A stretch of DNA of 64,000 nucleotides from a bacterium. Lineage in GTDB: Bacteria; Orphanbacterota; Orphanbacteria; JBJXGV01. The stretch covers positions 13,154-77,153 of the forward strand of contig JBJXGV010000070.1 of NCBI GenBank assembly GCA_046160485.1, given 5' to 3'. Shown here in pieces: positions 8,697 through 60,142 of this stretch (its first letter is position 1; every line of letters starts with the position of its first letter). The notes beneath the pieces were generated by a model that was not told the DNA's origin, did not search any database, and saw only the letters and a list, made by a program, of their open reading frames with translations. The translations under genes were made by a program, and so were the position numbers.

Positions 8697-8745
8697 AGTG
8701 CGAAGATCGACCCCCGTCGAACGCCATCAACCTCGGAGTCACAAG

Positions 8746-14579: not shown

Positions 14580-14581
14580 CC

Positions 14582-15349
14582 CTAGCGCCAAAGAGGAGCG
14601 AGCGCGGCCGAAGGCTGGTAGCGTGTTCTGCGAATGCCGAGGTGCTGCGCGATGCGGCGGCGAAGCCCGTTGTTGATCGCGCGAATCCCCAGCTCGCCGT
14701 CCATCTCCTCGAACTTGTGGCGCCGCGAGAGCGACTGGAACTGCGTGCGGACCAACTGCTGGTAACGGATAAACGAGCGATACAGATCGTTCGAGAGCGA
14801 CATATCGCGCCCCGCTTCCCAATAGCTGATGACGCTCGACTTCTTGAACTCGCGTTCGAACGCGGCTTGCGGGCCGACCTTGAGCCAGAACGTCAGGTCG
14901 GGGCGAAGCGCCATCGCGTAGAGGCCGTGCAGGTATTCGCGCGAAAGCCCGCGCACCGCGCTCCGCGCGATCAGCGAGTAGATGTAGCGGTCGGCGAGCA
15001 CGACCATTCCCGATCGAAGGGCCGGAATGATGCGGTGCTCGAGCTGATCGAAGAAGTCGGTGGCGTACATGAGCGCGAGCGTCAGGCGCGTGACGGCGTT
15101 TTCCGCGAGAAGGTTGTCGATGTCGCGCGCCACGAGATTCGAGCGCCGCAGTCCCATCGTCTGGACTGGAAACCCCTCGGACTCGAGCCACTCTTTCAGA
15201 AGCGCGATCTGGGTCGACCGCCCGGAGCCGTCCGTCCCTTCGATGACGATCAGAGAGCCCGACAGCTCTTCGGGTGCGCACCCGGGAAGCACGGTTCCGT
15301 AGAAGCGTGTCGCCTCGACCGACGCCGCCTTTCGCTTTCGCGTCGTCAT
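14582..15349 (-). CDS. Thymidylate kinase-like P-loop kinase (paralog 1)
   Basis: Start at internal Met (MTTRKRK); LIVIEGTDGSGRSTQ P-loop and VLADRYIYS (DRY) motif. Confidence 0.7.
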   Translation of the reverse strand: MTTRKRKAASVEATRFYGTVLPGCAPEELSGSLIVIEGTDGSGRSTQIALLKEWLESEGFPVQTMGLRRSNLVARDIDNLLAENAVTRLTLALMYATDFFDQLEHRIIPALRSGMVVLADRYIYSLIARSAVRGLSREYLHGLYAMALRPDLTFWLKVGPQAAFEREFKKSSVISYWEAGRDMSLSNDLYRSFIRYQQLVRTQFQSLSRRHKFEEMDGELGIRAINNGLRRRIAQHLGIRRTRYQPSAALAPLWR

Positions 15350-16077
15350 CGGCGCGGACCGAACCGGCTCAGATCGATTCGCGTTGCGACCTTCGCCCGC
15401 ATATCTTCTTGCAGTTTGTTCACGGGCAACGTGCCGTCCATCAGCACGAAATTGTCGGTTGCGATCATCTGCTCGTACTCGTCCATGATCATTCCCTGGA
15501 AGCGGCGGAAACTTTCGCCGGGATCGAACGACAATCCCAAGTCCATCCCCGCCTCGTAGTGTTTGAGTTTCGGGCGCCCGCCGAGGATGCGATTGACCGC
15601 GACGTCGAGCGGCGCGCGGAAATAGAACGTGATATCGGGAATCGGCGCGAAGCCGTAGAGATTGCGAAGCCACGCCGTCGAGCAGCCGCGAGCCGAGTCG
15701 CGCGCGAACGCCGTGTAGATGTAGCGGTCCGCGAGCACGAGGTAGCCGCTCTGCAACAGCGGGAGAATCTGCCGCTCGCACCGGTCCGCGAAATCGGCGG
15801 AGTGCAGAAGCGAGAACGTGACGGGCGTCAGGAGCCGGCGGCGTTTTCCGCGCCGCGTCGCCGCCTTGACGAGCAGCGACGAATTCCACTCGGTGAAGTG
15901 AATCCGGTACCCCGAGATCTCGAGCCAGCGCTTCAGAAGATAAAGCTGCGTGCTCTTCCCGGAGCCGTCGATTCCTTCGACGACGATGAGCGCGCCAGGA
16001 TAGTCGCGGCCGCCCGTGTTCCGCGCACTGGCGCGGAGCGCCGCCGCGCGCGGCTCTTTTGCGAGGACGCGTGTCAT
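15346..16077 (-). CDS. Thymidylate kinase-like P-loop kinase (paralog 2)
   Basis: LIVVEGIDGSGKSTQ P-loop and LVLADRYIYT motif; 4-nt overlap with paralog 1. Confidence 0.7.
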   Translation of the reverse strand: MTRVLAKEPRAAALRASARNTGGRDYPGALIVVEGIDGSGKSTQLYLLKRWLEISGYRIHFTEWNSSLLVKAATRRGKRRRLLTPVTFSLLHSADFADRCERQILPLLQSGYLVLADRYIYTAFARDSARGCSTAWLRNLYGFAPIPDITFYFRAPLDVAVNRILGGRPKLKHYEAGMDLGLSFDPGESFRRFQGMIMDEYEQMIATDNFVLMDGTLPVNKLQEDMRAKVATRIDLSRFGPRR

Positions 16078-16213
16078 GACGGTGAGATTACACGCTGCAC
16101 AGCGAACGAGGGAAGCGATGAACGCGCCCCGAGTGTGACAATTCCGTGGTGGTGCGTGGCACCACGAGTGTGCAGAGGAATCGCGACGCGAGCGGCCATG
16201 GAGGCGAGCGCGG

Positions 16214-17419
16214 CTAAAGGCCGACGCGCGCGCGCTTGGCGAGAACGGATTCGGAAAGACACGGGCAATCTTGCAGGACCGAAAGCGTCACGGTCCTCCC
16301 GGAAGCAATCGTCGCAACGACCGTCACGGGCGCGCCGCTCCCGAGCTCGCGCGCCAGCTCCACGTCGCCTGTGGCCGTCGGCCGGAACGTCAGCGTCGCA
16401 ACGCCGCCGGAGAATCGCCCCTCGTCGATCGGGATCGGGCCATAGCGGATGTCGTCGTTCTCGAGTGTCACGCTGCCGTCGAGGATCGAACCTTCCTGCT
16501 CCGTGGCGATTCTCAGATCGTAGCTCTCGCCGGCGATCGTCGCGGGAATCGTGATCTCGAATTCGTCGTAGACACGCGCGGCCGTCCAGGACGTTCCGCC
16601 GGTGAAGCAGGTATCGATCACTCCGGCAACGTTCGTCTCCTGCCAGATGAAGAAGCGCACGACGCTCCCCTGATCGAGACGACCCGCGTAGCGAATCGGC
16701 GCGGCGCAACCGAGCGACTCCGCGAGCGCGCCCGTCGGATCGTCGGCGGGATCGACGATGAAGAAGATGGTGCTCGTGTCGGAGACGCCGCCTGTGACCA
16801 GCGGGAGCGTCGGCCCGATCGTCCCGCCCTGCGCGTTCCCGTACGTGATCTGAATGTTCCCGGTAAGCGACGCACCGTCTTGGATGAGGGAGAGCTCGCC
16901 GAGCATTCGCGAGCGCCCGAGCGGGCGGTCGAGCGGGCCCCGCGCGGTGAAGACCGGCGTTTCCAACGCCGCCGCGCCCGAGGCGACGAGGCACTGCTCG
17001 CTCGCGCAGTTCTGCGACACGCTCAAGAGCATCGTTTCGCGGTTCACGAGCGCGCCGTCGAATCGAACGGGCGCCGCGTTGCCGAACGCGTCGATCACCG
17101 CGACGATCGGCGGCGAGAACGGATCGATCGTGAACGAGAACCCAGCATCCGAGAGCGAACCCTGCGCGAGCGCGTACTCGCCGACCGGTTCGCGATTCTC
17201 GAGGACGATCAGTCGGCCGCCGATCGAGGTGTCGCGTTCCTCGAGCTCGAGGATCGCCTCCGTGCCATCGAGGTCCGTGATTTCCCAGCGGCCGGTGATG
17301 GAGTTCGAGGACTGCAGCGGGTCGCCGCTCTCGCCGCAGCCGAAGAGAAGCATGGCGACCGAAAGGACGAGAGGCGCGCGGATCGATCGCGCATTCGATG
17401 AGGACGCTCGCCAGATCAC
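16214..17419 (-). CDS. Hypothetical lipoprotein
   Basis: N-terminal signal with lipobox (LVLSVAMLLFGCGES); Thr/Gly/Ser-rich non-shadow composition; no recognised catalytic motif. Confidence 0.5.
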   Translation of the reverse strand: MIWRASSSNARSIRAPLVLSVAMLLFGCGESGDPLQSSNSITGRWEITDLDGTEAILELEERDTSIGGRLIVLENREPVGEYALAQGSLSDAGFSFTIDPFSPPIVAVIDAFGNAAPVRFDGALVNRETMLLSVSQNCASEQCLVASGAAALETPVFTARGPLDRPLGRSRMLGELSLIQDGASLTGNIQITYGNAQGGTIGPTLPLVTGGVSDTSTIFFIVDPADDPTGALAESLGCAAPIRYAGRLDQGSVVRFFIWQETNVAGVIDTCFTGGTSWTAARVYDEFEITIPATIAGESYDLRIATEQEGSILDGSVTLENDDIRYGPIPIDEGRFSGGVATLTFRPTATGDVELARELGSGAPVTVVATIASGRTVTLSVLQDCPCLSESVLAKRARVGL

Positions 17420-17481
17420 GGCGGCAGTCTACAAGGCGGGCGCGCCGCCCGCAATAACGAAGGTGCGCGCGCCGGGCCGAA

Positions 17482-19023
17482 CTAACCCGGAAGCTTCACG
17501 TCGATCATGAGGAGGCTCCCCTTTGCAACGAGCGAGAACGCGAATTGGAGCGCGAGAATCGCGATGAGGCCGCGCGTGCCGCCGGGCACGCCGCCGCGCG
17601 TCGCGGCGATCACCACGGGCGCAACGAGAAAGAGCCACACGCGCGAAGTCTCCGCGGGGATGAGTCCCGAGAGGTCGAGCACCGCGAGGAACGCGAGCAC
17701 CGCGAGCGTGAAAGGCGCCTCGATGCGGCGTGCGCGAAGGTCGCGAACGGCCGCGAACACCTCGCGCGCGAAAAGCACCGCCACGGCGGGCCCGAGGAAA
17801 ATGAAGAAGTCGGGGAGATTCCAGAAGACCCACGTGAGCCACTCGCGCCGCTGCTCCGGAATCAGAACCTCGTGCTGGATCTTGTAGGCGGCAAGGAAGA
17901 CGCGCGGAATCGAGCAGCCCGTCGCGAGCTGGAACAGCGCGAGGACCGAGGCGAATCCAGCGCCGAGGGCGAGCAGACGCCGCAGGCGCCAGCGCGGCGG
18001 CGGCCGCGTCCCCGCGTCGTCCGCCCGAGCAAATCGCGTGATCGTAATATCCACAATGCCAACAAGTAACAGAAAGAAGCTCGCCACGAACGTAAAGAGG
18101 CAGAGCACCCCGCACAGCGCGCCGGCGGCCACGAGCGACCGGAGTCCGCGCCCGCGGCCGACAAGGAGGAACGCAGCGAGGATCAGAAGCGGATACGCGG
18201 CATCGAACTCCCCGGCGAAGAGGAGGTGCGACGGGATCACGGCTAGGAGGAGCACGGCGGCGCGAGCAGCCGGCGCGCCGCTCAGTCGACGCGCGAAGAA
18301 GAACGCGGGAATCAGCGCCAGGCGCGAGCAGATGACGACGGCGAGCCCAACGATGATCAGGCTCGCGAGCTCGGCCGGAGCCGCGCCCGGAAGATCGCCC
18401 TCGGAGATCCCGAACGCGCGCGCCACGCCGAGCACGCCATCGGTCGCGCCCGCCGACCCGCGGAAGAACTCGAGAATCTGGTGATTGACCGCAACGAGTC
18501 CCGGCGGATGCGTGCGCGCGTGATGCGGCAGTCCCGCCACGATTTCGTGGAACGACGTCAGCATCTCGGGCAGCGACGTGACGGAGCGCGCGGTCCAGAA
18601 GTAGCCGGTCACCCATGGCACGACGTGAATGAGCGGCAGCGTCACGGGCCCGAGCGGCGAGAGTCCGAGAAACGACAGCTCGAGCGCGATCGCGATCAGA
18701 ACGACGAGTGCGAGCATCGCCGCGTCGCCGCGAGGGCGCGAGTCGCGCCGGCGAGTCCACGTCGCGGCCGCCCCCGCGAGCAGGGCGAAGAGGAGTGTCG
18801 TCCCGAGCGCACGCGGCCAAAGCGACGTCGCGACGTACGGCCATCGCCAAGAAGGCGGGCCGACGATCCACGGGAACCGGACCAGAAGAAGAATCGCAAT
18901 CGCCACGGTCGCGGCCGCGGCAGCGATCAGAACGCGCCGGTCGCCGCGAGCGCCGTCGTGCGTCGCGTTCGCGCCATCCTCGCTCACGGTGCGTCCCCGA
19001 TCATGCCGTTGCGCGAAATCCAA
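17482..19023 (-). CDS. Polytopic integral membrane protein, unknown function
   Basis: More than 10 hydrophobic segments (LIAAAAATVAIAILLLV, FTFVASFFLLLVGIV etc.). Start uncertain: the listed start overlaps the upstream SGNH gene by 40 nt. Confidence 0.5.
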   Translation of the reverse strand: MDFAQRHDRGRTVSEDGANATHDGARGDRRVLIAAAAATVAIAILLLVRFPWIVGPPSWRWPYVATSLWPRALGTTLLFALLAGAAATWTRRRDSRPRGDAAMLALVVLIAIALELSFLGLSPLGPVTLPLIHVVPWVTGYFWTARSVTSLPEMLTSFHEIVAGLPHHARTHPPGLVAVNHQILEFFRGSAGATDGVLGVARAFGISEGDLPGAAPAELASLIIVGLAVVICSRLALIPAFFFARRLSGAPAARAAVLLLAVIPSHLLFAGEFDAAYPLLILAAFLLVGRGRGLRSLVAAGALCGVLCLFTFVASFFLLLVGIVDITITRFARADDAGTRPPPRWRLRRLLALGAGFASVLALFQLATGCSIPRVFLAAYKIQHEVLIPEQRREWLTWVFWNLPDFFIFLGPAVAVLFAREVFAAVRDLRARRIEAPFTLAVLAFLAVLDLSGLIPAETSRVWLFLVAPVVIAATRGGVPGGTRGLIAILALQFAFSLVAKGSLLMIDVKLPG

Positions 19024-20018
19024 TCGAAGATGGCGCGCGCCGCGATCGCGTGGCCGGCGGCGTTCATGTGGTTATCGAGCGGCGTGACGGAGAGCGCCGA
19101 GGCGGACTTGCCGAGGAAGGCCGGGAGAAGGTCGAGATGCTCGATAGCCGCGCTCGCGCAGAACGCGACGACTTGCTCGTGCGCCGCGCGAAGCGGATAC
19201 GAATCGTCGAGGCTCACAATAAACGGGAGGACGACGACGCCGAAGCGGCCGCCGCTTGCGCGCACGTCGGTGGCGAGCGTACGAATCCCCGCTTCACACG
19301 CGAGCCAGCCCGGGGCGCGCGCGGCGAAGGTGTCCGCGTAGCGCCCGACGGCGGAACCGCGCGGGGCGATCCCGAATCGCCGCGCGAGCGCCGCGCCGCG
19401 CGACTTGACGAACTGCACCGTGCGGAGGGGCGGAACCCGAAGCCGAGACGCGCGCCGCGGCGCGGGCGCGATCCCCGCGGCCGGAGCGGCCGTTTTCGCC
19501 GCGGCCGCGAGCACCGGCGGATCGACGTCGTTCATGAAGAATCCGACAAGCACCAGATCAGGCGCGCGGGGCGCGACATCGAGCGCGAATGCCTCCGCTT
19601 GCTGCGCCGTATTCGACCCGATCATCGCGAAATTCTCGACCTCCCAGCGGCGATCCGGAAACGCGTCGGCTAGCATTTCCGCGAGCTGCACCGCGAAGGT
19701 TTCCTCATCGCGCACGCCCCAACCGAATGTCATCGAGTCGCCGAGGAGCGCGATTCGAAAGGTGCCGGGCGCCTTCGCGACGTCGAGTTCTGCGCCGCGA
19801 TAGCCCGAGGCGTTCGTGCGCACCGGAACGCCGGCGATCACACCCGTCGCGCTCGGCGGCAAACACGCAAGCCGCGGCGAAGCGGGGTGCGGCACGAGCG
19901 CCATCCCCCACGGGCGGTCGAACGAGCGGAGCCAGAGTTCGCAGCACGCGAGCGCTACGATGAGCGACAGCGCGATGAGCAGTAGGCGTGCGGCCCACTC
20001 GCGAGAGCGTGATATCAT
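18984..20018 (-). CDS. Membrane-anchored SGNH/GDSL-like hydrolase family protein
   Basis: N-terminal TM helix; block I FRIALLGDSMTFGWGV; block V-like DNHMNAAGHA. Confidence 0.7.
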   Translation of the reverse strand: MISRSREWAARLLLIALSLIVALACCELWLRSFDRPWGMALVPHPASPRLACLPPSATGVIAGVPVRTNASGYRGAELDVAKAPGTFRIALLGDSMTFGWGVRDEETFAVQLAEMLADAFPDRRWEVENFAMIGSNTAQQAEAFALDVAPRAPDLVLVGFFMNDVDPPVLAAAAKTAAPAAGIAPAPRRASRLRVPPLRTVQFVKSRGAALARRFGIAPRGSAVGRYADTFAARAPGWLACEAGIRTLATDVRASGGRFGVVVLPFIVSLDDSYPLRAAHEQVVAFCASAAIEHLDLLPAFLGKSASALSVTPLDNHMNAAGHAIAARAIFDWISRNGMIGDAP

Positions 20019-20026
20019 CCGGCGCG

Positions 20027-22141
20027 ATGACCGCCGCGAAAACCTCGGCCGCCGCGCGCGCCGCGCTGATACTCGTCGGCCTTCTTCTCTTCGCGGCGCT
20101 CGAAGGGTTGCTCGCGCTCGCCGGTCTCGGCGGTGCGCGCGATCGCGGCGACCCGTTCCTCGGGTTCAGCCAGGAGTACGCGATCTTCGTTCCCGATGCG
20201 ACGGGCGCGAGGCTCGTCACCGATCCCGCGAAGCGCGAGTCGTTCAACGAGCAGGCGATCGCGCGCACGAAGGCCGAGGGGACGATTCGCATCTTCTGCC
20301 TCGGCGGCTCGGCGACGTACGGGTTTCCGCGCGGCGCGGCCGGCGCGTTCCCCGCGATCCTCGGCGAGAAACTCGCGCGCGCGTTCCCCGCGCGGCGCTT
20401 CGAGGTCGTCAATCTCGGCGGGCTCTCGTACGCGGCGTTTCGCTGCGTCAACGTCGCGCGCGAGGTCGCGCGTTACGAACCCGACGCGATCCTCTACTAC
20501 GACGGGAACAACGAGTACGTCGAGCGGCGCTTCTTCGCGGAGATGCTCGCCGAACCCGCGTGGAGGCGAAACCTGCGCGCGCAAGCGAGCCGCCTTCGAA
20601 CGTACACGCTGCTGAAGAAAGCGATCGATCGCGGCCGCCCCCAGCGCTGGAGCGGCGACGAGTCGGAACTCTTCGGCGTGCGCGTTCTGCGCGAGGACAA
20701 CGAGTCCCTTCCGAGAAGCGATGCGGAGGATCGGGTCATCGAGGAGAGTTTCGCGGCGTCGCTCGCGCAGATGCGCGCGATCGCGCGCGAGGCCGGCGCG
20801 GCCTTCGTCGTCGGCGTCGCCGCTGTGAACGAAGCCGATTGGCCGCCGGGACTTTCGCTTCACGATCCCTCCAAGGACTCGGCGGCGATCGCCGCGTTCG
20901 ACGGGCGCATGCAGGAGGCCGCGCGGCTTCGCGCCTCGGGCGACATCGCGGGCGCCGCGCGCGCGTTCGAGGCCGCGATCGCAATCGATTCGCGTTACGC
21001 AGCCGCTCACTTCGAACTCGGCGGATGCTATCACGCGCTCGGAGAGAGTCACAAGGCGCGCGCGGCGTTCCGCGCGGCGATCGCGTCGGACGGGCTGCCG
21101 ATTCGCGCGACGCCGCGCATTCAGAATGCCGCGCGCGCGTTTGCGGACGCGTCCGGCACGCCGCGCGTCGACATCGACAGCCTCTTCGCGAGCATCTCAC
21201 CGGGCGGCATCATCGGCCGCGAGTTGTTCATCGACTATTGCCACCCGACGCGCGATGGCCACGAGCGGATCGCGGACGCGTTCTTCGCGGTAATCGCACG
21301 CGATCTGCTCGACGCGCCGGGCGCGCCGCCGCCCGCGATCGGCCCGGACGAAGCGCCGAGCGATACGTCGTCCGCGTTCGGCATCGCGTGGGAGGGGCAG
21401 ATGTTCATTCGGCAGGGACGATTCGCTGAGGCCGAGGAGCGCTTTCGCGCCGCGCTCGCGCTCGACGCGGAGCTCTCCTACGCGCTCGAGGGAATGGGCC
21501 GCTGCCTGATCGCGCGCGGCGACTCCGCGGGCGCGGTTTCGTTCTACGAGAGCGCCGCTCGCGTGAACCCGGGCAATCCGACGATCCTCACGAATCTCGC
21601 GAACACATATCTCGCGGTGGGACGCATGGCGGAGAGCGAAGCGGCGATACGCAAAGCAATCGACGCGGATCCGAACTCGGCGAGCGCGCGGCTACTCCTC
21701 GCGCGGCTCCTCGCGCGCAGCGGGCGCGCGCCGGAAGCGCGCACCACGCTCGAGGCCGCGGTCGCGGCGAGCCCGGCGAACGCGGACGCGCGCAAGCTCC
21801 TCGCGCGCCTCCTCGCGGACGCGGGCGAGACCGCCGCCGCCGAGGCGCACTATCGCGAAGCGCTTCGCCTCGACCCGAGCGACGGAGCCGCCGGCTACGC
21901 GCACGCGATTCTCTTGATCAAGCTGGAGCGACCCGACGAAGCGCTCGCGATACTCGACGCGGCGATCGCGCGGAATGCCGACTTCTACCCCGCCATCGGA
22001 GCGGCCGGAGTTCTGCGCATGAACCGCGGAGAGCGCGACGCCGCCGTGCGCCACTTCCGGCGCGTGCTCGAGCTTCACCCTGGCGATCAACTCGCCTCGC
22101 GCTATCTCGCGGTACTCGAGAGTCCGGGGGGCGTGCCGTAA
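20027..22141 (+). CDS. SGNH-like domain protein with C-terminal TPR repeats
   Basis: Start at internal Met (MTAAKTSAAARAALILVGLLLFAAL). IRIFCLGGSATYGF block I variant, DYCHPTRDGH block V; C-terminal half is TPR-like (AEAEERFRAALALD, AEAHYREALRLDP). Divergent from the 18984-20018 gene. Confidence 0.7.
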   Translation: MTAAKTSAAARAALILVGLLLFAALEGLLALAGLGGARDRGDPFLGFSQEYAIFVPDATGARLVTDPAKRESFNEQAIARTKAEGTIRIFCLGGSATYGFPRGAAGAFPAILGEKLARAFPARRFEVVNLGGLSYAAFRCVNVAREVARYEPDAILYYDGNNEYVERRFFAEMLAEPAWRRNLRAQASRLRTYTLLKKAIDRGRPQRWSGDESELFGVRVLREDNESLPRSDAEDRVIEESFAASLAQMRAIAREAGAAFVVGVAAVNEADWPPGLSLHDPSKDSAAIAAFDGRMQEAARLRASGDIAGAARAFEAAIAIDSRYAAAHFELGGCYHALGESHKARAAFRAAIASDGLPIRATPRIQNAARAFADASGTPRVDIDSLFASISPGGIIGRELFIDYCHPTRDGHERIADAFFAVIARDLLDAPGAPPPAIGPDEAPSDTSSAFGIAWEGQMFIRQGRFAEAEERFRAALALDAELSYALEGMGRCLIARGDSAGAVSFYESAARVNPGNPTILTNLANTYLAVGRMAESEAAIRKAIDADPNSASARLLLARLLARSGRAPEARTTLEAAVAASPANADARKLLARLLADAGETAAAEAHYREALRLDPSDGAAGYAHAILLIKLERPDEALAILDAAIARNADFYPAIGAAGVLRMNRGERDAAVRHFRRVLELHPGDQLASRYLAVLESPGGVP

Positions 22142-22180: not shown

Positions 22181-23329
22181 CTAGCGAACGCGGCGGCGGC
22201 GGTTCTCGACGAAGTCCATGAGGATGTATTCGCCGAGCTTGTTGAGCGAGGAGAAGTACGCGCGGCCGCGATTGAGCTCGGTGAGTTGCGTGACGAAATC
22301 CTGGAAGTGCGCGTCGCGCGTCACCATGAACGTCGTGATCGGAATCCGCTTGCGCCGGCAGACGACGGCTTCGTCGAGCGTGCGATTGATGATCTTCGGA
22401 TCGAGGCCGAACGTGTTGCGGTAGATCGTGCCGTCGCTCTCGCGAATCACGGTCGGCTTGCCGTCGGTGATGAGAAAGATCTGCCGGTTCGCCGCCTTCC
22501 GCCGTTCGAGAATCTTGCGCGCCATTTGCAGCGCGGCCTTCGTATTCGTGTGGTACGGCCCGACCTCGAGGTACGGGATGTCGCCGATGGCGATCTCGAA
22601 CGCGTCGTCGCCGAACGCGATCACGTCGAGCGTGTCCTTCGGGTACTTCGTCAGAATCAGTTCCGTCAGCGCAAGCGCGACACGTTTCGCCGGCGTGATC
22701 CGGTCCTCGCCGTAGAGAACCATGCTGTGCGAGATGTCGATGAGGAGCGCGGTCGCGCACGACGACGAGTGTTCGGTCTCGAAGACCTCGAGGTCTTCCT
22801 CCTTCAATCCGCCGCCGAGTAGTCCCGTGCCTTCGAGGCCCGTCAAACTCACCTGCGTTTCGTCGGCGCCGGTCGCGCTCGCGCGCCGAAACGAATTCAG
22901 GAGCGACCCCCTAAAGTCGATGTTGTTGACCTCGTCGCCGAAGCGCCACGGCCGCCGCTCCGAGAGCATCTCGCGGCCATCGCCTTCGCGCGGAACGCGG
23001 TGGTCCCCCGACTCGCCTTTGCGCAGCGCCGAAAACACGTACGAAAGCGCGCTCTTGCGAATGCCGCGCTCCCCTTTTCGCGTCAGCCGCGCGCCGTCGT
23101 CGGAGACCTCGATGTACTCCTCTTCCTCGAGACGCTTTGCAAACTTTTCGACGTCGAAGCCATCGGGGAGATAGCCCTGCTTCGCGAGATAACGCAGCAT
23201 CTCGAGCGCCTCGTCGACATCGCCGTCGCTTTGCAGCAGCAGATGATTGAACAGATCGAGGACGTTCTGGAATTCGGCGAGATCGCGCAGAAGCGCTTCG
23301 TCGAACCGGAAGTAGCGAAAGCGCGACAC
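22181..23329 (-). CDS. VWA domain protein (partner of the ChlI-like ATPase)
   Basis: MIDAS motif LLIDISHSM (DxSxS) followed by a typical von Willebrand A fold region ending FLITDGKPT; about 170-aa N-terminal domain of unknown function. Confidence 0.75.
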   Translation of the reverse strand: MSRFRYFRFDEALLRDLAEFQNVLDLFNHLLLQSDGDVDEALEMLRYLAKQGYLPDGFDVEKFAKRLEEEEYIEVSDDGARLTRKGERGIRKSALSYVFSALRKGESGDHRVPREGDGREMLSERRPWRFGDEVNNIDFRGSLLNSFRRASATGADETQVSLTGLEGTGLLGGGLKEEDLEVFETEHSSSCATALLIDISHSMVLYGEDRITPAKRVALALTELILTKYPKDTLDVIAFGDDAFEIAIGDIPYLEVGPYHTNTKAALQMARKILERRKAANRQIFLITDGKPTVIRESDGTIYRNTFGLDPKIINRTLDEAVVCRRKRIPITTFMVTRDAHFQDFVTQLTELNRGRAYFSSLNKLGEYILMDFVENRRRRVR

Positions 23330-23338
23330 GAGAGCCGG

Positions 23339-24811
23339 CTAGCCCTTCATGTTCTTGAACATGTTCGCGAGCATGTCGCTGTAGCGGACGCGTTGATCGA
23401 GCGCTTCCTTCGCGACGAGCGAGTTCTGGTGCAACCCGTCGAGAACGAACTCCATGACCGTCGCCATTTCTTCTTCGTCCGCGGGCCGCATTTGCTTCTT
23501 CGCGATCGCCTTGAGGCCCGGCACCTTCGACAGCTCCGCGTAGTAGTCCGCAAACGGCATCTCGTCGCTGATCTCGATCCGGCCGCCGCCCGCGAAGTGA
23601 TCGGAGATTTCCTTGTACGGCCCGGGCCCCTTCCCCGGCTCCTCTTTTCCGTCCTTCGACTTGTAGACCGCCGGAAAATGCCGCTGGAAGACCTTGTTGA
23701 TCGCCTTGCCGATGAGCGTGAGCGAAACGATCGTCGGTCCCTCCTGCTCGCCTTCGTAGACCAGCTCGATCTTTCCGGTGATCGCGGGGAGCGCGGAGTA
23801 GAGATCGCACATGCGCGGCGTCCAGCGTTCCTCGCCGGTCAGCAAGACGCGCCGCTCGATGTTCGAGAGCAGGTTCTCGTATGCGGAGATCGGAAGCCGC
23901 GCCGAAACGCCGCTCGATTGATCGACGAACTCGCTCTTCCGCGCCTCGAACGCGATCTCCTCGACGATCTCTTGGATGAAACGCGGCATGCGAAACGGCT
24001 GGCCGCGATCGACCCACGCCTCTTGAGCGGTGATCGCGATCGCGTCGTCGACCGTCTGCGGGTAGTGCGTGATGATCTGCGAGTCGATGCGGTCTTTGAG
24101 CGGCGTGATGATGTTCCCGCGATTCGTGTAGTCCTCGGGATTCGCCGTGAAGACGAGCAACAGATCGAGCGGCAGCCGAATCGGAAATCCGCGAATCTGC
24201 AGATCCTTCTCCTCGAGGATGTTGAGGAGCCCGACCTGAATGCGCGGCTGAAGATCCGGCAGCTCGTTGAGCGCGAAAATCCCGCGATTCGTGCGCGGCA
24301 CGATGCCGTAGTGGATGACGCCTTCGTCGGAGAGGTCGAGCCTCTCGCGCGCGGCCTTGATCGGGTCGATGTCGCCGATCAGGTCCGCCATCGTCACGTC
24401 GGGCGTCGCGAGCTTCTCCTGATACCGCTCCTCGCGCGTGATCCATCGAATCTCGATCTGCTCGCCGAGTTCGGAGGCGAGCCGCCGGCAACGCGAACAG
24501 ACGGGATGAAGCGGATCGTCGTTGAGCGCGCAACCCTCGATCGCGGGAACGCGCTCGTCGAGAAGCGACGTCAGCGCGCGAATGATGCGCGTTTTCGCCT
24601 GACCGCGAAGGCCGAGGAGGATCAGGTCGTGTTTCGCGAGCAGCGCGTTTTCGATTTGAGGAATCACGGTCCGGTCGTAGCCGACGATTCCGGGGAAGAC
24701 CGGCTCCTTGGCGCGGATCTTCCGCGCGAGGTTGCGCCGGATCTCATCCTTTACGGAGAGCGCGGCATAACCGGTCTTCTTCAGTTCTCTAAGCGTCTTC
24801 GGGTGAGGCAT
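23339..24811 (-). CDS. Mg-chelatase ChlI-like AAA+ ATPase
   Basis: FPGIVGYDRTVIPQIENALLAKHDLILLGLRGQAKT Walker A-region variant typical of ChlI/BchI-like ATPases; GIFALNELPDL Walker B-like. 10 nt upstream of the VWA gene. Confidence 0.75.
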   Translation of the reverse strand: MPHPKTLRELKKTGYAALSVKDEIRRNLARKIRAKEPVFPGIVGYDRTVIPQIENALLAKHDLILLGLRGQAKTRIIRALTSLLDERVPAIEGCALNDDPLHPVCSRCRRLASELGEQIEIRWITREERYQEKLATPDVTMADLIGDIDPIKAARERLDLSDEGVIHYGIVPRTNRGIFALNELPDLQPRIQVGLLNILEEKDLQIRGFPIRLPLDLLLVFTANPEDYTNRGNIITPLKDRIDSQIITHYPQTVDDAIAITAQEAWVDRGQPFRMPRFIQEIVEEIAFEARKSEFVDQSSGVSARLPISAYENLLSNIERRVLLTGEERWTPRMCDLYSALPAITGKIELVYEGEQEGPTIVSLTLIGKAINKVFQRHFPAVYKSKDGKEEPGKGPGPYKEISDHFAGGGRIEISDEMPFADYYAELSKVPGLKAIAKKQMRPADEEEMATVMEFVLDGLHQNSLVAKEALDQRVRYSDMLANMFKNMKG

Positions 24812-24945
24812 TCACGACTCCAAGGGGGCGAGGACGATGTTCTGTTCGGCGATTTTGTCGGCGAATGATAGCAGCGCAAGGGAAGCCGGGCAAACAGGGC
24901 GCGCACGGGAGCGCGACGACGCGCGATCCGGCGATGCTCGCGCTG

Positions 24946-24975
24946 TTGACGCGGCGGCGCGACGCTGTCTACTCT
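24946..24975 (+). promoter_or_regulatory. Candidate sigma70-like promoter for PolX (TTGACG-N18-TACTCT); implies a leaderless or near-leaderless transcript
   Basis: -35-like TTGACG at 24946-24951 and -10-like TACTCT at 24970-24975, 9 nt upstream of the ATG at 24984. Hexamer matching by eye in GC-rich DNA is weak evidence. Confidence 0.3.
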
Positions 24976-24983
24976 GTCGCTCG

Positions 24984-26780
24984 ATGAGCGACGCCCGGCC
25001 GCAACCGATCGACAAGACGAACGTCGCGCGGATTCTGCGTGAGATCGCGGCGCTTCTCGAAATCCGCGGCGAGAATCCGTTCAAGGCACGCGCCTACGAG
25101 AACGCGGCGCGCGCGATCGAGGGAACGACCGAGGAGTTCGGCGCGCTCGTCGCGAGCGGCGCGTACAAAGAGATCGCCGGCATCGGCCCTGCGCTCCGCG
25201 AAAAACTCGAGGAGTTGGCCGCGACGGGGCGGCTCGAATACTACGATGCGCTGCGTGCCGAGCTTCCCGCGACGATTCTCGAACTGACGGCGATTCCCGG
25301 CCTTGGGCCGAAGAAGATCCACTCGCTCCACACGAAGCTCGGCATTGCATCGATCGAAGCGCTCGAAGCGGCCGCGCGCGACGGCCGTCTCACGACGCTT
25401 CCTGGCTTCACCGCGAAGACCGCGGCGAAAATACTCGAGGGGATCGAGTTTCTCCGCGCGAACGCAAGCCGCAGGCTCCTCGTCGAGGGCCTCGATGAAG
25501 CCGCGCGGGTCGTCGCCGCGCTCGGACACGTCGTTGCGCTCCCGGGCGCAACCGCGCCCGCGGGAAGGGCGCTCCCGGTCGTGACATCGTTCGCCGTCGC
25601 GGGGAGCCTGCGCCGTTTCAAGGAGACGGTGAAGGACGTCGACATGGTCGGTTGCAGCGACGAACCCGAAGCCGTGATGACGGCGTTCCAATCGCTGGGG
25701 CTCGCGGCGCGCGTCGTCAATCGCGGCGCGACGAAATCGACGATCGTTCTCGACTCCGGCATGCAGGTCGACCTGCGGCTCGTCGCGCCCGAAGAGTTCG
25801 CGTACACGCTTCTCCATTTCACGGGAAGCGCCGAGCACAACACGGCGATGCGGGCGCGCGCGAAGGAACGCGCGCTGAAGCTCAACGAGTACGGTCTGTG
25901 GAGCGGCGAAGAACGGATTCCCGCCGCGAGCGAGGAGGAGATCTTCGCGACGCTCGGGCTCGCCCCGATCGCGCCGGAGCTGCGCGAGGCGATGGGCGAG
26001 ATCGAGGATGCCGAGGCCGGCGCCATTCCACGGCTCGTCACCGCGTCGGATCTTCGCGGGGTCCTTCACTGTCACTCCACCTGGAGCGATGGACGCAACA
26101 CGATCGCCGAGATGGCGGAGGCGGCGCGCGACGCCGGCTACGAGTACATCGGCATGAGCGATCACAGCCGCACGGCCGCGTACGCGGGCGGCCTCACGCC
26201 CGAGCGGGTCCGCGCGCAGTGGGACGAGATCGACGCGCTCAACGCGCGCCTCGCGCCGTTTCGCATCTTCAAGGGAATCGAATCGGACATTCTCGGCGAC
26301 GGCGCGCTCGACTACGACGATGAACTTCTCGCAGGTTTCGATTTCGTCGTCGCGTCGGTGCACTCGCGAATGACGATGGAGCTCGAGGAGATGACGGCGC
26401 GAATCGTGCGCGCCGTCGAACACCCGCGCACCACGATTCTCGGGCATCCGACGGGGCGGCGGCTTCTCACGCGCGACGCCTACGCCGTCGACATGACTCG
26501 AGTCATCGACGCGGCTCTGGCGAACCACGTCGTCGTCGAACTCAATTGCAACCCGGAGCGGCTCGACATCGACTGGCGCGTGTTGCGCGGCGCGCTCCCC
26601 CGCGGACTGACGACGAGCATCAATCCCGACGCGCACGCGACGGCGCACTTTCGGTTCTTGGAGATCGGCGCGGGCGTCGCACGGAAGGCGCGCACCGAAG
26701 CGCGTCACGTTCTGAACACGCGATCCGCGAGCGAGATCGCCGACTACTTCGCGGAGCGGAAGCGCCGTGCCGCGCGCTAG
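24984..26780 (+). CDS. polX: DNA polymerase X family protein with C-terminal PHP domain
   Basis: Start at internal Met (MSDARPQPIDK). Helix-hairpin-helix motifs (IAGIGPALREKL; IPGLGPKKIHSL), pol-beta-like palm (VAGSLRRFKETVKDVDMV), C-terminal PHP (GVLHCHSTWSDG). Confidence 0.8.
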   Translation: MSDARPQPIDKTNVARILREIAALLEIRGENPFKARAYENAARAIEGTTEEFGALVASGAYKEIAGIGPALREKLEELAATGRLEYYDALRAELPATILELTAIPGLGPKKIHSLHTKLGIASIEALEAAARDGRLTTLPGFTAKTAAKILEGIEFLRANASRRLLVEGLDEAARVVAALGHVVALPGATAPAGRALPVVTSFAVAGSLRRFKETVKDVDMVGCSDEPEAVMTAFQSLGLAARVVNRGATKSTIVLDSGMQVDLRLVAPEEFAYTLLHFTGSAEHNTAMRARAKERALKLNEYGLWSGEERIPAASEEEIFATLGLAPIAPELREAMGEIEDAEAGAIPRLVTASDLRGVLHCHSTWSDGRNTIAEMAEAARDAGYEYIGMSDHSRTAAYAGGLTPERVRAQWDEIDALNARLAPFRIFKGIESDILGDGALDYDDELLAGFDFVVASVHSRMTMELEEMTARIVRAVEHPRTTILGHPTGRRLLTRDAYAVDMTRVIDAALANHVVVELNCNPERLDIDWRVLRGALPRGLTTSINPDAHATAHFRFLEIGAGVARKARTEARHVLNTRSASEIADYFAERKRRAAR

Positions 26781-27435
26781 CTCAACGCGGAAGCGCGCTG
26801 CGGCCGCGGAGATTCTCGAGCGCCTGCGCCGCGCGATCCCCGACGCGACGATCGCGCTCGACTTCGCCGACCCGCTGCAGTTGACCGTCGCCACGATCCT
26901 CGCCGCGCAATGCACGGACGCGCGCGTCAACATCGTCACGAAAGATCTCTTCCGGCGCTACAAGACCGCGGCGGATTTCGCGGCGGCGGATCCCGCGCGG
27001 CTCGAGAAAGAAGTTCACTCGACGGGATTCTTCCGCGCGAAGACGAAGTCGATCCTCGGAATGGCGAACGCGCTCGTCGAACGCCACGGCGGCGAGGTGC
27101 CGCGCACGATGGAAGAACTCACGGCGCTACCGGGAGTCGGGCGCAAGACGGCGAACGTCGTGCTCGGAAATGCATTCGGCATTCCGGGAATCATCGTCGA
27201 CACGCATTTCCTGCGCGTGACGCACCGGCTCGGGCTCACGAAGCATTCCGAGCCCGAGAAGGTCGAAGCGGACCTCGCCGCACTCGTGCCGCAACCCGCG
27301 TGGACCGAGTTCTCGCATCTCATCACGCATCACGGCCGCCGCACGTGCGACGCGCGCAAGCCGAAGTGCGATGCGTGCGCGCTTCTCGATCTCTGCCCCG
27401 CGGGGACGCGGTGGGCGAAGCTCGCACGCGCGTAG
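26767..27435 (+). CDS. nth: Endonuclease III
   Basis: HhH-GPD motif LTALPGVGRKTANVVL, catalytic region, and C-terminal 4Fe-4S cluster loop CDARKPKCDACALLDLC. Confidence 0.85.
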   Translation: MPRASSTRKRAAAAEILERLRRAIPDATIALDFADPLQLTVATILAAQCTDARVNIVTKDLFRRYKTAADFAAADPARLEKEVHSTGFFRAKTKSILGMANALVERHGGEVPRTMEELTALPGVGRKTANVVLGNAFGIPGIIVDTHFLRVTHRLGLTKHSEPEKVEADLAALVPQPAWTEFSHLITHHGRRTCDARKPKCDACALLDLCPAGTRWAKLARA

Positions 27436-29360: not shown

Positions 29361-31251
29361 CTAGAGAAGCGGCTTGCCGTCGAGGTCTGGCGGTATCGGC
29401 ACGCCCAACAACTTCAAGATCGTCGGCGCCAGATCCATGATCGACGGCGTCGCACCCGCGAGCGGCAGCGCACGGTTGCAGAGCAGCGTTCCGCACGTGA
29501 TCTCGGGGTCGAACGAGCAGTGATCCCCGCTCCACTTGCGCGCGTTGTCGGTGAAAACCTCGGACGGGATTCCGCCGAGCGCCGTCTGCCAAGAGACGCG
29601 GTAGCCGTCGACAAAGCCGACAATCAGATCGCCCGATTTGTGGACGTACTCGCCGGAGAAAATTTCCTCGGGGCGATAGACCTTGCGCACGACGTTCTCG
29701 GGCGGGCGCCCGTTCGGCGTGTCCTTCAGACCGTAGATTGCCTTCTCGATCGACTCGCGCAACTCGCGCGCTTCCTTCCCGTGCCCGACGATCCCCTCGG
29801 CTTCGCGTCCCGCGAGATTGAGATAGACCTTGCCGAGCCCCATCGAGTACGCGCGCGTCTTCGACCAGTCGACGTTCGGCCAAAACGTGCCGCCGCCCGT
29901 CAGATCAGAAAGCGTGAATTCCTTGTCGGCCACGCCCGGATTCTTAAGCGCAAGCCAACCGTTCTGGTGCAGCCACGTGTTGATGTTGACCGCGCGCCGG
30001 AACGAATGGAATCCGTGATCCGAGAGCACGAACAACGTCGTGTCCTCGCCCATGAACTTCATCACTTCGCCGAGGAGGCGATCGAACTTTTGATAGACCT
30101 TGAGAATCTCGCCGCCCCAGAGCCGCTCTCCGTCGGCGGAGTAGAGCGGGTGCTCGCGATCGAGGAAGCGCCAGAACATGTGCTGCACGCGATCCGTCGA
30201 GTTCATGACCGAGATCACGAGATCGGAATCCATTTTGCGCAGCGCCGAGAGCGTGATGTCGATCCGCTTGTCGAACGCGTAGTGCAAATCTTCGAGGAAC
30301 GCCTTCTCGTCGAGGCGCCCTTCGTTCAGGCCCCACGTGTCGGTCGCCCAGCCGAGCGTCTTGAACAATCCGATCTCGTCGGCAAGTTCGCCGGACCATC
30401 CCGCGGGATACGTGATCGCAAACGGCGGGTTCTTCGGATGAAAGTTGATCGCGCTCTGGTAGACGCGCAGATGCGGGCGGATTGCACGCGGGTAAAAGCG
30501 AACGATCCCGCGCGCCGAGAAGAGCGGATTGACGGGGAACGCGACCTCGAACCACTCGCTCCACGTTTCGAGCGCGACAACGCGATCGGTTCCGCCCGCC
30601 GAAATGCGAATATGCGTATCGTCCACGACCTCGAAACGAAGCCCGAGCGTGATCTCGCGCGGCCCGAGGAGCTTCAGCTCCGCGCGCCCGTCGTTGAGCA
30701 CGAGGCGCACGTTGCGCCCGCCGAGCTCCGTCGACGAGTCGGACTCGAGGTCGGTCGCATAGTAGAAAGACGTCCCCCACGAACCGCGCAGATCCGGAAC
30801 GCCGAGCCCCGACATCATTCGGCCGCGCACCTTCTCCGGCGGAAACGTGACGGGTACTTGGATGATCGACACGGTGCGGCCGGCGCGGCTTAGGTAATCC
30901 CACAACGCGCCGCCTTTGCGGTTGTTGATCACCTCAGGCTTGCCGATCGCGGACGGCTTTACCGACGTGATCGACAGCCGCGGCAGATAATCCTCCGGCG
31001 ATCGCTCGAGGAAATCGAAGATCGACGTCTTCCCCGGATTCTTGCCCGAGATAAACGACGACCACGCGACGGGAGATTCGGCGGGCACGGTGGTGCCGAG
31101 ATGCGAGTGGTGCCCCGAGGCGCGCAGGCGCGCGAAGTTCGGCAGATCGCCGGACGCGATCCACTTCTCGACGAGGCTCGGCTCCATGCCGTCGCCGCCG
31201 AGGACGATCACCTTCGGGTGGCGCTTTCCCCAGCGGCCGAAGAGCTTCACG
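29361..31251 (-). CDS. Type I phosphodiesterase / nucleotide pyrophosphatase (alkaline phosphatase superfamily) protein
   Basis: GTG start at 31249-31251 preceded by GGGAG. KVIVLGGDGMEPSLV N-terminus and LFVLSDHGFHSF motif of the Phosphodiest family. The listed 918-aa ORF is extended by an Arg-rich shadow. Confidence 0.7.
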
Positions 31252-32269
31252 CGAGTAACTCCCGCGATCGAGCCATCAGGTCCGATTCGAGCTGCTTGGC
31301 GGACGCGCCGTTCGGTATCGGCACTTTGCCTCCGGCCATCGTTCCGTGTCCGCCGGCCTTGCCGTGCGCGCCGACGATTCGACGAACCATCTGGCCCGCG
31401 CCGCGCGCGCGCGTCGTTCGCACGGAAAGGTAGATCGCGCCCTCGAAGCGTCCCATCACGACGACCCATTCGACCCCTTCGAGGCGGATCGCCATATCGG
31501 CGTATTCCGCGACGCGATCGGGATAGTCGAGATCGCCGAGCCGCGCGAGCGCAAGCCGTCCCTCGAGCGATGTCCCCGTTATCGCGGTCTTGAGCCACTC
31601 GAGGTAGTCGCGCGACAGAGGCGCGTTCTCGATACGCGACAAGAGCACGCGATCGACGCGATCGAACAGCGAGCGATGAAACGCGATGTCGCGCGCGGTG
31701 GCTTCGCGCGAAAAGTCGAGCGTCTCCGATTTGATGCCGAGGAAGAGCGCGGTCGCGAGAGGCCGTTCGATGCGGATCTTCGCGGCGTCGAGGTACTCGC
31801 CGACGATCGTCGCCGTCGCGCCGATCGTCGGGCGGACATCGTAGTACGCGACCGCGCGTGTCTCGTCGCGCAGCGGGTGATGATCGATCACGACGTCGGG
31901 AACACGGTCGGCGGGTATCGAGTTGTTCCCCGTCTCCGGCTGGGAGTCGACGAGCGCGAGCCGCTCGTAGCGCTCGAACGCGATCTGGTCGAGCGGTACG
32001 AGCGGATACCCGACCAGCGTCGCCATCGCGCGATTCTCCGGGCGTCCGATGATGCCGCCGTAGGCGACGTCGACGACGCGGCGCGTGCCGGCCTTGAAGA
32101 GCGCGCGAAGAGCCCAAGCACTCGAGAGCGCGTCCGGGTCGGGATTGTCGTGCGTAATGACGAGGATGCGCTTCGCGTTGCCGAGAGCGCGCGCAAGGCG
32201 CGCGAGCCGCTGCCGCGCGGCGTTGCCACTCACCGGCACGCCGCGCTCCCAGTCGCGCGCGAGCGCCAC
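31247..32269 (-). CDS. nrnA: DHH-family phosphoesterase (NrnA-like oligoribonuclease / pAp phosphatase)
   Basis: ILVITHDNPDPDALSS and VVIDHH DHH motifs, C-terminal DHHA1-like GGGHxxAAG (GGHGTMAGG). Confidence 0.75.
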   Translation of the reverse strand: MALARDWERGVPVSGNAARQRLARLARALGNAKRILVITHDNPDPDALSSAWALRALFKAGTRRVVDVAYGGIIGRPENRAMATLVGYPLVPLDQIAFERYERLALVDSQPETGNNSIPADRVPDVVIDHHPLRDETRAVAYYDVRPTIGATATIVGEYLDAAKIRIERPLATALFLGIKSETLDFSREATARDIAFHRSLFDRVDRVLLSRIENAPLSRDYLEWLKTAITGTSLEGRLALARLGDLDYPDRVAEYADMAIRLEGVEWVVVMGRFEGAIYLSVRTTRARGAGQMVRRIVGAHGKAGGHGTMAGGKVPIPNGASAKQLESDLMARSRELLA

Positions 32270-32287: not shown

Positions 32288-32776
32288 TTAGCCTTCACCC
32301 AGTCGAGAGAGCTCGCCGCGAAGCCATGAGGCGTGCTTCCGCTCCTGCTGGATGAGTTCGTCGATCGCCCGGCGTGCTTCTTCCCGCTCGGCGAACGGCA
32401 AGAGCCCTTCATAGAAGCGAATGGCGTCCTCTTCCATGCGAATCCCGAGCCGCAGTGCGTCGGCGTCGGAGGTGATCGTTGCCATCTGCTCCCGAGGAGG
32501 GTTCTTACTTCCGAAAATTGTCCCCTGATAGAGCTTCTCTAGCGCGTCGAGAGATTTCGCTTCGCCGGGAGTCTCGGGCGCGTCGCCGCGGCTCGAGAAG
32601 TAGATGTCCTCGAAATCGTGGACGTGTTTTTCTTCGTCGGCCGCGATTTCCGCGAAGACGCGCATCACCCCGGGGTTGAGGTTGAGCTCCCGCCCGCGCC
32701 GGTAAAATGCGAGTCCGTCTTGCTCGAGTTGGACGGCCACTCGAAAGACATCAGCGAATGTCCAGGCGTAACCCAA
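32288..32776 (-). CDS. Rubrerythrin/ferritin-like diiron protein
   Basis: Two E...ExxH diiron motifs (AADEEKHVHDFE; MEEDAIRFYE...QQERKHASWL). Confidence 0.6.
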   Translation of the reverse strand: MGYAWTFADVFRVAVQLEQDGLAFYRRGRELNLNPGVMRVFAEIAADEEKHVHDFEDIYFSSRGDAPETPGEAKSLDALEKLYQGTIFGSKNPPREQMATITSDADALRLGIRMEEDAIRFYEGLLPFAEREEARRAIDELIQQERKHASWLRGELSRLGEG

Positions 32777-34528: not shown

Positions 34529-34670
34529 GACACGCTCTCCTTTCCAAGAAAGGGAGGCGACGCCGTTTCCGGCGCCACCCTATCGGCCGGTCGCTCGTAG
34601 CTACACGCCGTAGAGCGACGGGCTCGGAGAGTTCAGAATAGAGCGAGGGTAGAACGGCGTGCGGACCGCG

Positions 34671-36041: not shown

Positions 36042-36210
36042 GCGTTTACCTTCCAGACCCCGTAATTGACGAACGGCAGGTTCACATCGATGAAACTTCT
36101 CTGAATTGCTTATCGGGCGGGGCGGCGATCGAGATTAGGGAACATTTCGCCAGGAACGACGGAGGCCACTATAAGAGCGTCCCCATAGGCCGTCAAGGCG
36201 CGCGGAACAC

Positions 36211-38271: not shown

Positions 38272-38275
38272 GCGA

Positions 38276-60083: not shown

Positions 60084-60142
60084 ATCGCGCCGCGCCGAAA
60101 CTCGTCCGCCGTGCTGAATCCTCCGCGGGCTATAATCGCGGC

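Follow-up and report, generated by a model that had tools for sequence, protein, structure and literature searches.

Pairs in which an AAA+ ATPase works with a protein carrying a von Willebrand factor A (VWA) domain and its MIDAS (an adhesion site that depends on a metal ion) are known from Rubisco activation, nitric oxide reductase maturation and the chelation steps of chlorophyll and B12; to our knowledge, the well-studied cases in which a clade-7 AAA+ ring is paired with a VWA/MIDAS protein are all remodelling or metal-insertion machines. In the Mg-chelatase, the motor ChlI/BchI is joined to the VWA/MIDAS protein ChlD/BchD, whilst NorQ-NorD, CbbQ-CbbO, CoxD-CoxE, RavA-ViaA and CobS-CobT are two-gene modules of an ATPase and a VWA/MIDAS protein, the partners of the MoxR class being built from an N-domain, a linker, a VWA domain and a conserved C-terminus. 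Here we describe a pair of the same general build, encoded on the minus strand of a 64,000-nt stretch of bacterial DNA (GTDB lineage Orphanbacterota; assembly GCA_046160485.1, contig JBJXGV010000070.1, positions 13,154 to 77,153; hereafter ‘the window’). By analogy with the machines above, we put at roughly 0.6 the probability that this pair, which is of the Rv0958/Rv0959 type, forms a two-component AAA+/MIDAS remodelling machine with its client encoded elsewhere.

The pair comprises two head-to-tail open reading frames (ORFs), the ATPase gene lying 5' of the VWA gene. An earlier, sequence-only reading of this DNA had delimited both, and both are confirmed at those positions, each with thousands of homologues at E-values down to 0:

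23339-24811, minus strand: gene for the AAA+ ATPase, 490 aa, ATG start; distantly ChlI/BchI-like and apparently an orthologue within the Rv0958 family
22181-23329, minus strand: gene for the VWA/MIDAS partner protein, 382 aa, GTG start; apparently a short form of the Rv0959 family
23330-23338, minus strand: 9-nt spacer from the ATPase stop codon (TAG) to the VWA start codon (GTG)
24865-24893, minus strand: candidate sigma-70-like promoter (TTGCCC, 17 nt, TATCAT with a TG extension), a match to consensus only

A GGAG sequence stands 7 nt ahead of the ATPase ATG, and the candidate promoter, some 50 nt 5' of this start codon, is the single promoter-like site between 21900 and 25200, where shuffled sequence leads one to expect 0.3. 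On either side the neighbouring genes point the other way: that for PolX (24837-26780, plus strand), directly followed by one for endonuclease III (26767-27435, plus strand), is divergent from the pair and so upstream in the pair’s own direction; the SGNH/TPR gene (19988-22141, plus strand) is convergent with it and so downstream. The sequence-only reading had named both neighbours rightly and placed each on the wrong side; it had also given the spacer as 10 nt. Because of the opposed orientation of the flanks, the pair is most likely a self-contained, standalone two-gene operon, and the short spacer, together with a same-strand adjacency that is kept in two gene orders (see below), argues for co-transcription. 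The GenBank copies of the two proteins, from a metagenome-assembled ‘bacterium’, are named ‘magnesium chelatase’ and ‘vWA domain-containing protein’.

Taking the ATPase first, we find Pfam matches to AAA_5 (E 1.5e-7) and, marginally, to Mg_chelatase (E 1.1e-4; 22.1 bits against a cut-off of 20.3, over 58 residues), with ChlI/BchI providing the best sequence matches among solved structures (8osf, E 2.8e-7; 1g8p, E 3.3e-5); its earlier description as a ChlI-like AAA+ ATPase therefore holds. ChlI/BchI and archaeal LonB are in fact the only sequence relatives among solved structures, whether one searches with the sequence alone or with a profile of 69 sequences, the profile finding no MoxR protein there at E ≤ 0.01. 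The AlphaFold model (mean predicted local distance difference test score, pLDDT, 86.6) has BchI, LonB, a MoxR protein, MCM, NorQ, CbbQ and ComM as its Foldseek neighbours, and from this predicted fold the protein appears to belong to the clade-7, helix-2-insert / pre-sensor-1-hairpin class of AAA+ proteins. Profile placement, which the sequence-only reading had proposed as a check, leaves the ATPase unclaimed by any characterised subfamily: it scores 19.3 bits against a cut-off of 27 for MoxR (AAA_3, PF07726), 17.5 against 20.2 for sigma-54 activators (Sigma54_activat, PF00158) and 26.8 against 466.95 for the ChlI/BchI equivalog TIGR02030. Judged by sequence, its closest affinity would be with ChlI/BchI, at a distance; it falls far under the family cut-offs, its Walker B motif reads N-E, and it carries an additional C-terminal domain of 150 aa. 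From the MoxR class it differs in failing the AAA_3 cut-off and in lying closer to ChlI and LonB.

Along the polypeptide, the recognisable elements of the ATPase are as follows, the roles at 24089-24145 being those suggested by alignment with ChlI:

24590-24613, minus strand: Walker A motif GLRGQAKT, residues 67-74; aligns with ChlI GDRGTGKS
24488-24532, minus strand: cysteine triad C94, C105 and C108, within the ChlI-type segment after helix 2
24251-24283, minus strand: Walker B motif GIFALNELPDL, residues 177-187, with Asn for the canonical Asp; aligns with ChlI YVDEVN
24089-24145, minus strand: putative sensor 1 (N224), acidic post-sensor-1 loop (PEDYTNRG) and arginine finger (R241)
23897-23914, minus strand: sensor 2 region SGVSAR (R305), with S300, G301, S303 and R305 invariant
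23342-23794, minus strand: C-terminal extension of about 150 aa beyond the AAA+ lid, predicted to form a helical domain with a small beta-hairpin; no Pfam match

Neither nucleotide-binding motif has the canonical form of the ChlI type (GxxGxGK[ST] for Walker A, hhhhDE for Walker B), the window protein reading GLRGQAKT and FALNE, a departure that the sequence-only reading did not mention. Counted in a 69-sequence family alignment, Walker A takes the form GLRGQAK[ST], with K73 invariant and the preceding, canonically Gly, position occupied by Ala in 60 sequences and Gly in nine. N182 and E183 of Walker B are invariant (69/69) and recur in distant orthologues from Tsukamurella and Thermomicrobium, to which we return below; in these two proteins and the 69 sequences nearly all residues of the 24089-24145 segment are likewise invariant. 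Conservation of sensor 1, arginine finger, sensor 2 and the Walker A Lys suggests a working nucleotide site. The cysteine triad had been taken for an inserted CxxC segment, wrongly, since the C94...C105-x-x-C108 region aligns with ChlI/BchI’s own segment after helix 2. All three cysteines are found in 52 of the 69 members, the other 17 being without at least two, and the triad is absent from the Tsukamurella and Thermomicrobium orthologues; because the three are present together or largely lost together, the pattern suggests a dispensable metal or redox site. Beyond the lid, alignments with ChlI/BchI stop near residue 280, and the C-terminal extension is modelled with pLDDT mostly above 90, residues 385-395 excepted.

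The elements of the VWA protein, from its N- to its C-terminus, can be listed in the same way, residue conservation here being counted in 50 homologues:

23015-23329, minus strand: N-terminal helical domain with a beta-hairpin, residues 1-105 (about 10-105 in the model)
22802-22873, minus strand: Gly/Thr-rich insertion of about 18 residues in a 24-residue stretch of the linker preceding the VWA domain; predicted disordered
22250-22792, minus strand: VWA domain, residues 180-360
22724-22738, minus strand: MIDAS motif D198-I-S200-H-S202, opening a nearly invariant 20-residue stretch, DxSHSMxLYGEDRITPAK (50/50 at almost all positions)
22541-22552, minus strand: HTNT, residues 260-263, with the MIDAS threonine; T261, N262 and T263 invariant
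22463-22465, minus strand: MIDAS aspartate D289 (in TDGKP), invariant
22400-22456, minus strand: conserved beta-hairpin in the VWA domain, residues 292-310, with modelled strands at 294-296 and 302-304
22184-22216, minus strand: C-terminal basic tail DFVENRRRRVR; D372 and R377 invariant

A Pfam match to VWA_2 (E 2.6e-10) and the invariance of D198-x-S200-x-S202, T261/T263 and D289 in all 50 homologues bear out the earlier description of a VWA protein with an intact MIDAS. Its AlphaFold model (mean pLDDT 82.9) resolves into the helical N-domain with its hairpin, a poorly ordered linker, the VWA domain and a C-terminal helix running out into the basic tail NRRRRVR; the Gly/Thr-rich insertion, where pLDDT drops below 50 at residues 161-171, is missing from most homologues, which measure 360-367 aa. 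The VWA domain of NorD is among the structural neighbours of this model, and the layout of the partner is that of NorD in miniature: N-domain, linker, VWA domain and an essential-looking C-terminus. The hairpin at 292-310 protrudes from the domain, with G300, N305, G308, L309 and D310 invariant, and by analogy with NorD we regard it as a candidate ‘finger’ for the pore of the ATPase.

As to the N-terminal part of about 170 aa that the sequence-only reading had called a domain of unknown function, such a part exists, but the domain now has a Pfam entry, PF27098 ‘Rv0959_3rd’, which precomputed annotation places N-terminal to the VWA domain in the identical database protein and in all 120 homologues listed. 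Scanning 1.84 billion representative proteins, we found this N-domain to be confined to the present family, always N-terminal, in about 400 clusters at 50% identity whose members are either some 360-370 aa at full length or fragments; no other domain architecture in that set carries it. Nor does the N-domain give an AAA+ match in Pfam or NCBIfam, or an AAA+ fold in the model, and in this the partner is unlike ChlD/BchD: in ChlD the N-terminal half is AAA+-like and an acidic/Pro-rich linker leads to the VWA domain at the C-terminus, where the window’s partner starts with a helical N-domain some 105 aa long.

The wider family to which both proteins belong emerged from a protein search of a plasmid collection, in which the matches were to chromosome-like replicons of Thermomicrobium, Nonomuraea, Nocardia and Tsukamurella. 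In Tsukamurella, the ATPase gene (42% identity to the window’s protein over 471 residues, E 2e-110) comes after purN and purH on the same strand, with four unrelated genes between, and is followed by a gene for a 659-aa VWA protein; this order resembles the numbering Rv0956-Rv0959 of M. tuberculosis, and in a proteome table for M. smegmatis the number of the Rv0958 orthologue, MSMEG_5512 (‘magnesium chelatase’), is near that of purH (Rv0957), MSMEG_5515. Through the Tsukamurella and Thermomicrobium proteins, the gene numbering and PF27098, the Pfam entry of the window’s VWA partner that is itself named after Rv0959, the comparison of sequences points to the pair being orthologous to Rv0958/Rv0959 of M. 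tuberculosis, which are annotated as a ‘possible magnesium chelatase’ and a conserved hypothetical protein with a VWA domain. The pair is placed outside every characterised family, in the recognised but uncharacterised Rv0958/Rv0959 family (Pfam PF27098).

The Tsukamurella and Thermomicrobium systems share with the window the N-E Walker B, the post-sensor-1 loop, the arginine finger and the basic tail, a comparable basic C-terminus being present in both of their long VWA partners, and the Tsukamurella ATPase agrees with that of the window in all sensor motifs too; their Walker A motifs are GQGKT, the canonical form, in Tsukamurella and GQAKT in Thermomicrobium. It is in the partner that the two types differ, the actinobacterial and Thermomicrobium proteins being 659-699 aa long, that of the window 382 aa and most of those from the FCB group and Acidobacteriota about 364 aa. 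With 30-35% identity over the VWA part to the actinobacterial and Thermomicrobium partners, the window’s protein aligns by residues 2-45 with Thermomicrobium 6-48 and by residues 60-382 with 397-699, skipping in between a stretch of some 350 aa to which Pfam gives no match; the long, multi-domain form of the partner (about 660-700 aa) is thus not the one encoded here. These alignments make the window pair, in our reading, a short-partner variant of one ancient orthologous family.

We found no functional study in the literature for Rv0958/Rv0959, PF27098, COG4867 or a pairing of ChlI-like ATPase and vWA protein. Rv0958 is called ‘magnesium chelatase’ there by annotation only, and transposon mutants of Rv0959 were viable enough to be scored in mice. 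MSMEG_5512 appears in a list of proteins recovered by RNA polymerase pull-down and showed no DNA association (PMC7092591); we set this lead aside as weak, the same list including PurH and EchA6 and the DNA-association test having been negative.

Both proteins are widespread. Each is found in at least 8000 clusters at 90% identity, all at E ≤ 1e-5, and across phyla the ATPase remains about 60% identical and the VWA protein about 55%, the range taking in Zixibacteria, Ignavibacteria, Bacteroidota, Chlorobi, Rhodothermales, Acidobacteriota, Planctomycetota and Eisenbacteria, among others. To assess linkage, we sampled 80 loci from species-representative genomes with flanks of 10 kb. In 62 of these 80 other loci a VWA gene is found no more than 10 kb from that of the ATPase, so that the adjacent VWA/MIDAS partner gene by which MoxR-class systems are recognised is a feature of this family too; in the 60 full-length pairs the two genes share a strand and are mostly immediate neighbours. 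The ATPase gene precedes the VWA gene in 25 loci, the window included, with spacers of between -10 and +15 nt in 12 of them, and follows it in 35, mainly of Bacteroidota. Because the pairing persists while the gene order changes, we take it as good evidence for functional coupling.

What does not persist is any third gene. In an all-against-all clustering of the ORFs in these flanks, the pair apart, there were just shadow ORFs on the antisense strand and cases of lineage-specific synteny (heptosyltransferase, MurB, SurA, MBL hydrolase, Schlafen AlbA_2 and others); the 123 immediate neighbours, when assigned to Pfam, fell into 106 different families, none of them in more than six loci. MoxR-class systems adjoin the genes of their clients (nor, cbb, cox, cob), whereas the present pair has no conserved neighbour; the neighbourhood comparison that the sequence-only reading had called for thus leaves its remark that no client is evident in force.

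How might such a pair work? In NorQD, a finger of the NorD VWA domain sits in the NorQ pore, the NorD C-terminus is bound to the post-sensor-1 loop and the N-domain to the C-terminal helices of the ATPase, and ATP-driven rotation stretches the linker (PMC13036017); CobT reaches into the CobS ring with a shaft and, on the far side, binds CobN (bioRxiv 10.64898/2026.07.21.739949). The basic tail, the hairpin and the MIDAS surface of the window’s partner map onto the roles seen in NorQD and CobST, and it is for this reason that we favour a remodeller. By analogy with these two machines, and with CbbQO and ChlI-ChlD, the ATPase would form a hexameric ring on which the VWA protein docks by its conserved basic C-terminal tail, the tail perhaps contacting the invariant acidic post-sensor-1 loop (PEDY); the hairpin at residues 292-310 may enter the ring pore, whilst the N-domain may hold the C-terminal extension of the ATPase. 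The MIDAS metal would then capture an acidic residue of the client protein, and ATP binding and hydrolysis would twist or stretch the adaptor such that the client is remodelled, for example by insertion or release of a cofactor or by assembly or dismantling of a complex. Since the pair keeps about 60% identity across phyla, the client is probably widespread and conserved itself. In outline, then, the sequence and these analogies support the picture first drawn from the window’s sequence, of a ChlI-like ATPase and a VWA protein following a chaperone-like logic.

Several observations weigh against this proposal. No client candidate emerged from the flanks of the 80 loci or from the window, and about 15 loci with full 10-kb flanks (Rhodothermales, Saprospiraceae, Balneolaceae and others) have the ATPase gene with no VWA gene within that distance. 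Searching the literature, we found physical or functional data for none of the Rv0958/Rv0959 proteins. The ATPase lies outside the MoxR proteins and is weakly ChlI-like (26.8 versus 467 bits), which makes any transfer of mechanism an extrapolation. Finally, the Walker B Asp is replaced by Asn in all members and the residue before the Walker A Lys is mostly Ala; because of these two substitutions, hydrolysis could be slow, conditional or absent.

The last point leads directly to the rival that survives best, one we hold to be unlikely and nonetheless take seriously: that the ATPase is a pseudo-enzyme, binding nucleotide as a switch or scaffold and hydrolysing it little or not at all, and that the pair is no motor and serves instead as a stable adaptor or regulator dependent on the MIDAS. 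The Walker B Asn, shared by all 69 aligned sequences and the two distant orthologues, and the P-loop Ala of 60 of the 69 are what such a protein might show; set against them are E183, the sensor 1 Asn, the arginine finger and the sensor 2 Arg, whose invariance would be surprising in a protein able to do without hydrolysis, and the canonical Gly that is tolerated at position 72 in nine of the 69 members and in Tsukamurella.

A bolder form of the remodelling proposal, which we think unlikely and advance only as speculation, would see in the pair a housekeeping, midasin-like remodeller of a near-universal machine, such as an intermediate in the assembly of ribosomes or RNA polymerase, or a core respiratory complex. 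If true, it would explain how two cytoplasmic proteins, for which no client is encoded alongside, hold an identity of about 60% between Bacteroidota and Planctomycetota and of about 42% to Actinomycetota, and the invariant Walker B Asn would mark a distinct, slow or gated ATPase cycle. Rea1/Midasin, the eukaryotic AAA+ protein with a MIDAS that serves in ribosome assembly, is a single giant polypeptide of the dynein-like class, the likeness here being at the level of domains.

That the pair should instead be the motor of a tetrapyrrole chelatase of the Mg- or Co-chelatase class, with a ChlH/CobN-type subunit elsewhere in the genome, seems to us very unlikely. ChlI/BchI are, it is true, the nearest relatives of the ATPase in sequence and fold, public databases name it ‘magnesium chelatase’, and the logic of ATPase plus VWA protein is that of ChlI/ChlD and CobS/CobT; but the NCBIfam models for BchI, BchD and putative cobaltochelatase give only 27-32 bits where the cut-offs stand at 467-779, nothing like the AAA+ module of ChlD is present in the VWA partner, and Walker B reads N-E, not D-E. 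In agreement with the sequence-only reading, which had judged the context to be neither that of chlorophyll nor of cobalamin, a scan of the window’s ten large ORFs gave no CobN/BchH/ChlH-like gene, nor is such a gene conserved beside the pair in the 80 loci, and the context is not phototrophic. The pair is moreover present in Mycobacteriales and many Bacteroidota, organisms not known to synthesise chlorophyll.

More improbable still is a role in anti-phage defence or conflict, in the manner of vWA-plus-AAA+ systems. Modules of vWA and MoxR proteins are known from conflict systems, and two orthologues give a faint bpMoxR match (E of about 0.005, below cut-off); neither protein, however, matches PADLOC or has phage homologues, there is no effector domain, and an identity of about 60% across phyla, amongst housekeeping neighbours and with no features of an island, is not what defence would predict. 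A sigma-54-dependent transcriptional activator, suggested by the NCBI product names of some members, the weak Sigma54_activat match and the presence of MSMEG_5512 in the pull-down list cited above, can be dismissed almost outright, as the PF00158 score is below its cut-off, the alignment is without a GAFTGA loop, HTH_8 and receiver domains are absent, and MSMEG_5512 shared that list with metabolic enzymes such as PurH and showed no association with DNA.

With the two-component remodeller retained as the favoured interpretation, the Rv0958/Rv0959 family stands as a set of proteins as widespread and as conserved as the known AAA+/VWA machines and present in M. tuberculosis, for which the database labels ‘magnesium chelatase’ and ‘sigma-54 regulator’ are misleading. 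The architecture is in itself unsurprising; it is the breadth, the very high conservation, the Walker B motif and the presence in M. tuberculosis that make the family a reasonable target for client discovery. Identifying the client would add a new maturation or quality-control pathway, and the invariant Asn-Glu of Walker B offers a test case for how far AAA+ proteins tolerate loss of the metal-binding aspartate.

Some further observations concern the surroundings of the pair. Three genomes of Thermoanaerobaculia have the ATPase and VWA genes separated by a conserved, same-strand ORF of about 140 aa to which Pfam gives no match (L015, 4205-4636; L027, 1521-1940; L028, 6677-7093); it may be a lineage-specific third component. 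Amongst the sampled loci, no VWA gene lies within 10 kb at L010, L016, L019, L021, L025, L032, L043, L045, L055, L062, L064, L068, L074 and L075. In the window itself, PolX (HHH_8, pol beta thumb and PHP domains) overlaps endonuclease III (HhH-GPD) by 14 nt, an arrangement also seen in L082, a relative with 78% identity, and absent from the other 80 loci. A DNA-repair theme was considered, since the window and this close relative have PolX and Nth, L083 has UvrD and L084 a 2'-5' RNA ligase; the neighbour census did not support it.

Elsewhere in the window, a molybdenum cofactor (Moco) riboswitch (Rfam RF01055, 87 bits; 34521-34641, minus strand) stands directly upstream of a moaA-type radical SAM gene (33548-34528, minus strand), with genes for a metallo-beta-lactamase-fold protein (32893-33561, minus strand) and a rubrerythrin-like protein (32288-32776, minus strand) following; the arrangement is an ordinary one, some 10 kb from the ATPase/VWA pair and unlinked to it. 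Two probably secreted proteins end in an FlgD_ig-type domain, one a purple-acid/metallophosphatase protein of 1473 aa (58559-62980, plus strand) and the other a protein of 771 aa with a lamin-tail domain (8680-10995, plus strand). The 918-aa ORF at 29361-32117 (minus strand) has a C-terminal phosphodiesterase domain preceded by about 300 Arg-rich, non-coding-looking residues; its syntenic homologue in L082 is 632 aa long, and translation probably begins well downstream of the TTG given for this ORF. A Ppx/GppA phosphatase ORF (13038-15281, minus strand) similarly has about 250 residues before its first Pfam domain, which may reflect an over-extended start or an extra domain. Lastly, AT skew is strongly positive (up to 0.30-0.32) and GC skew flat at 16001-20000 and 36001-40000, stretches that coincide with minus-strand genes for membrane proteins, PMT_2-like (17482-19023) and O-antigen ligase-like (38276-40570) respectively.

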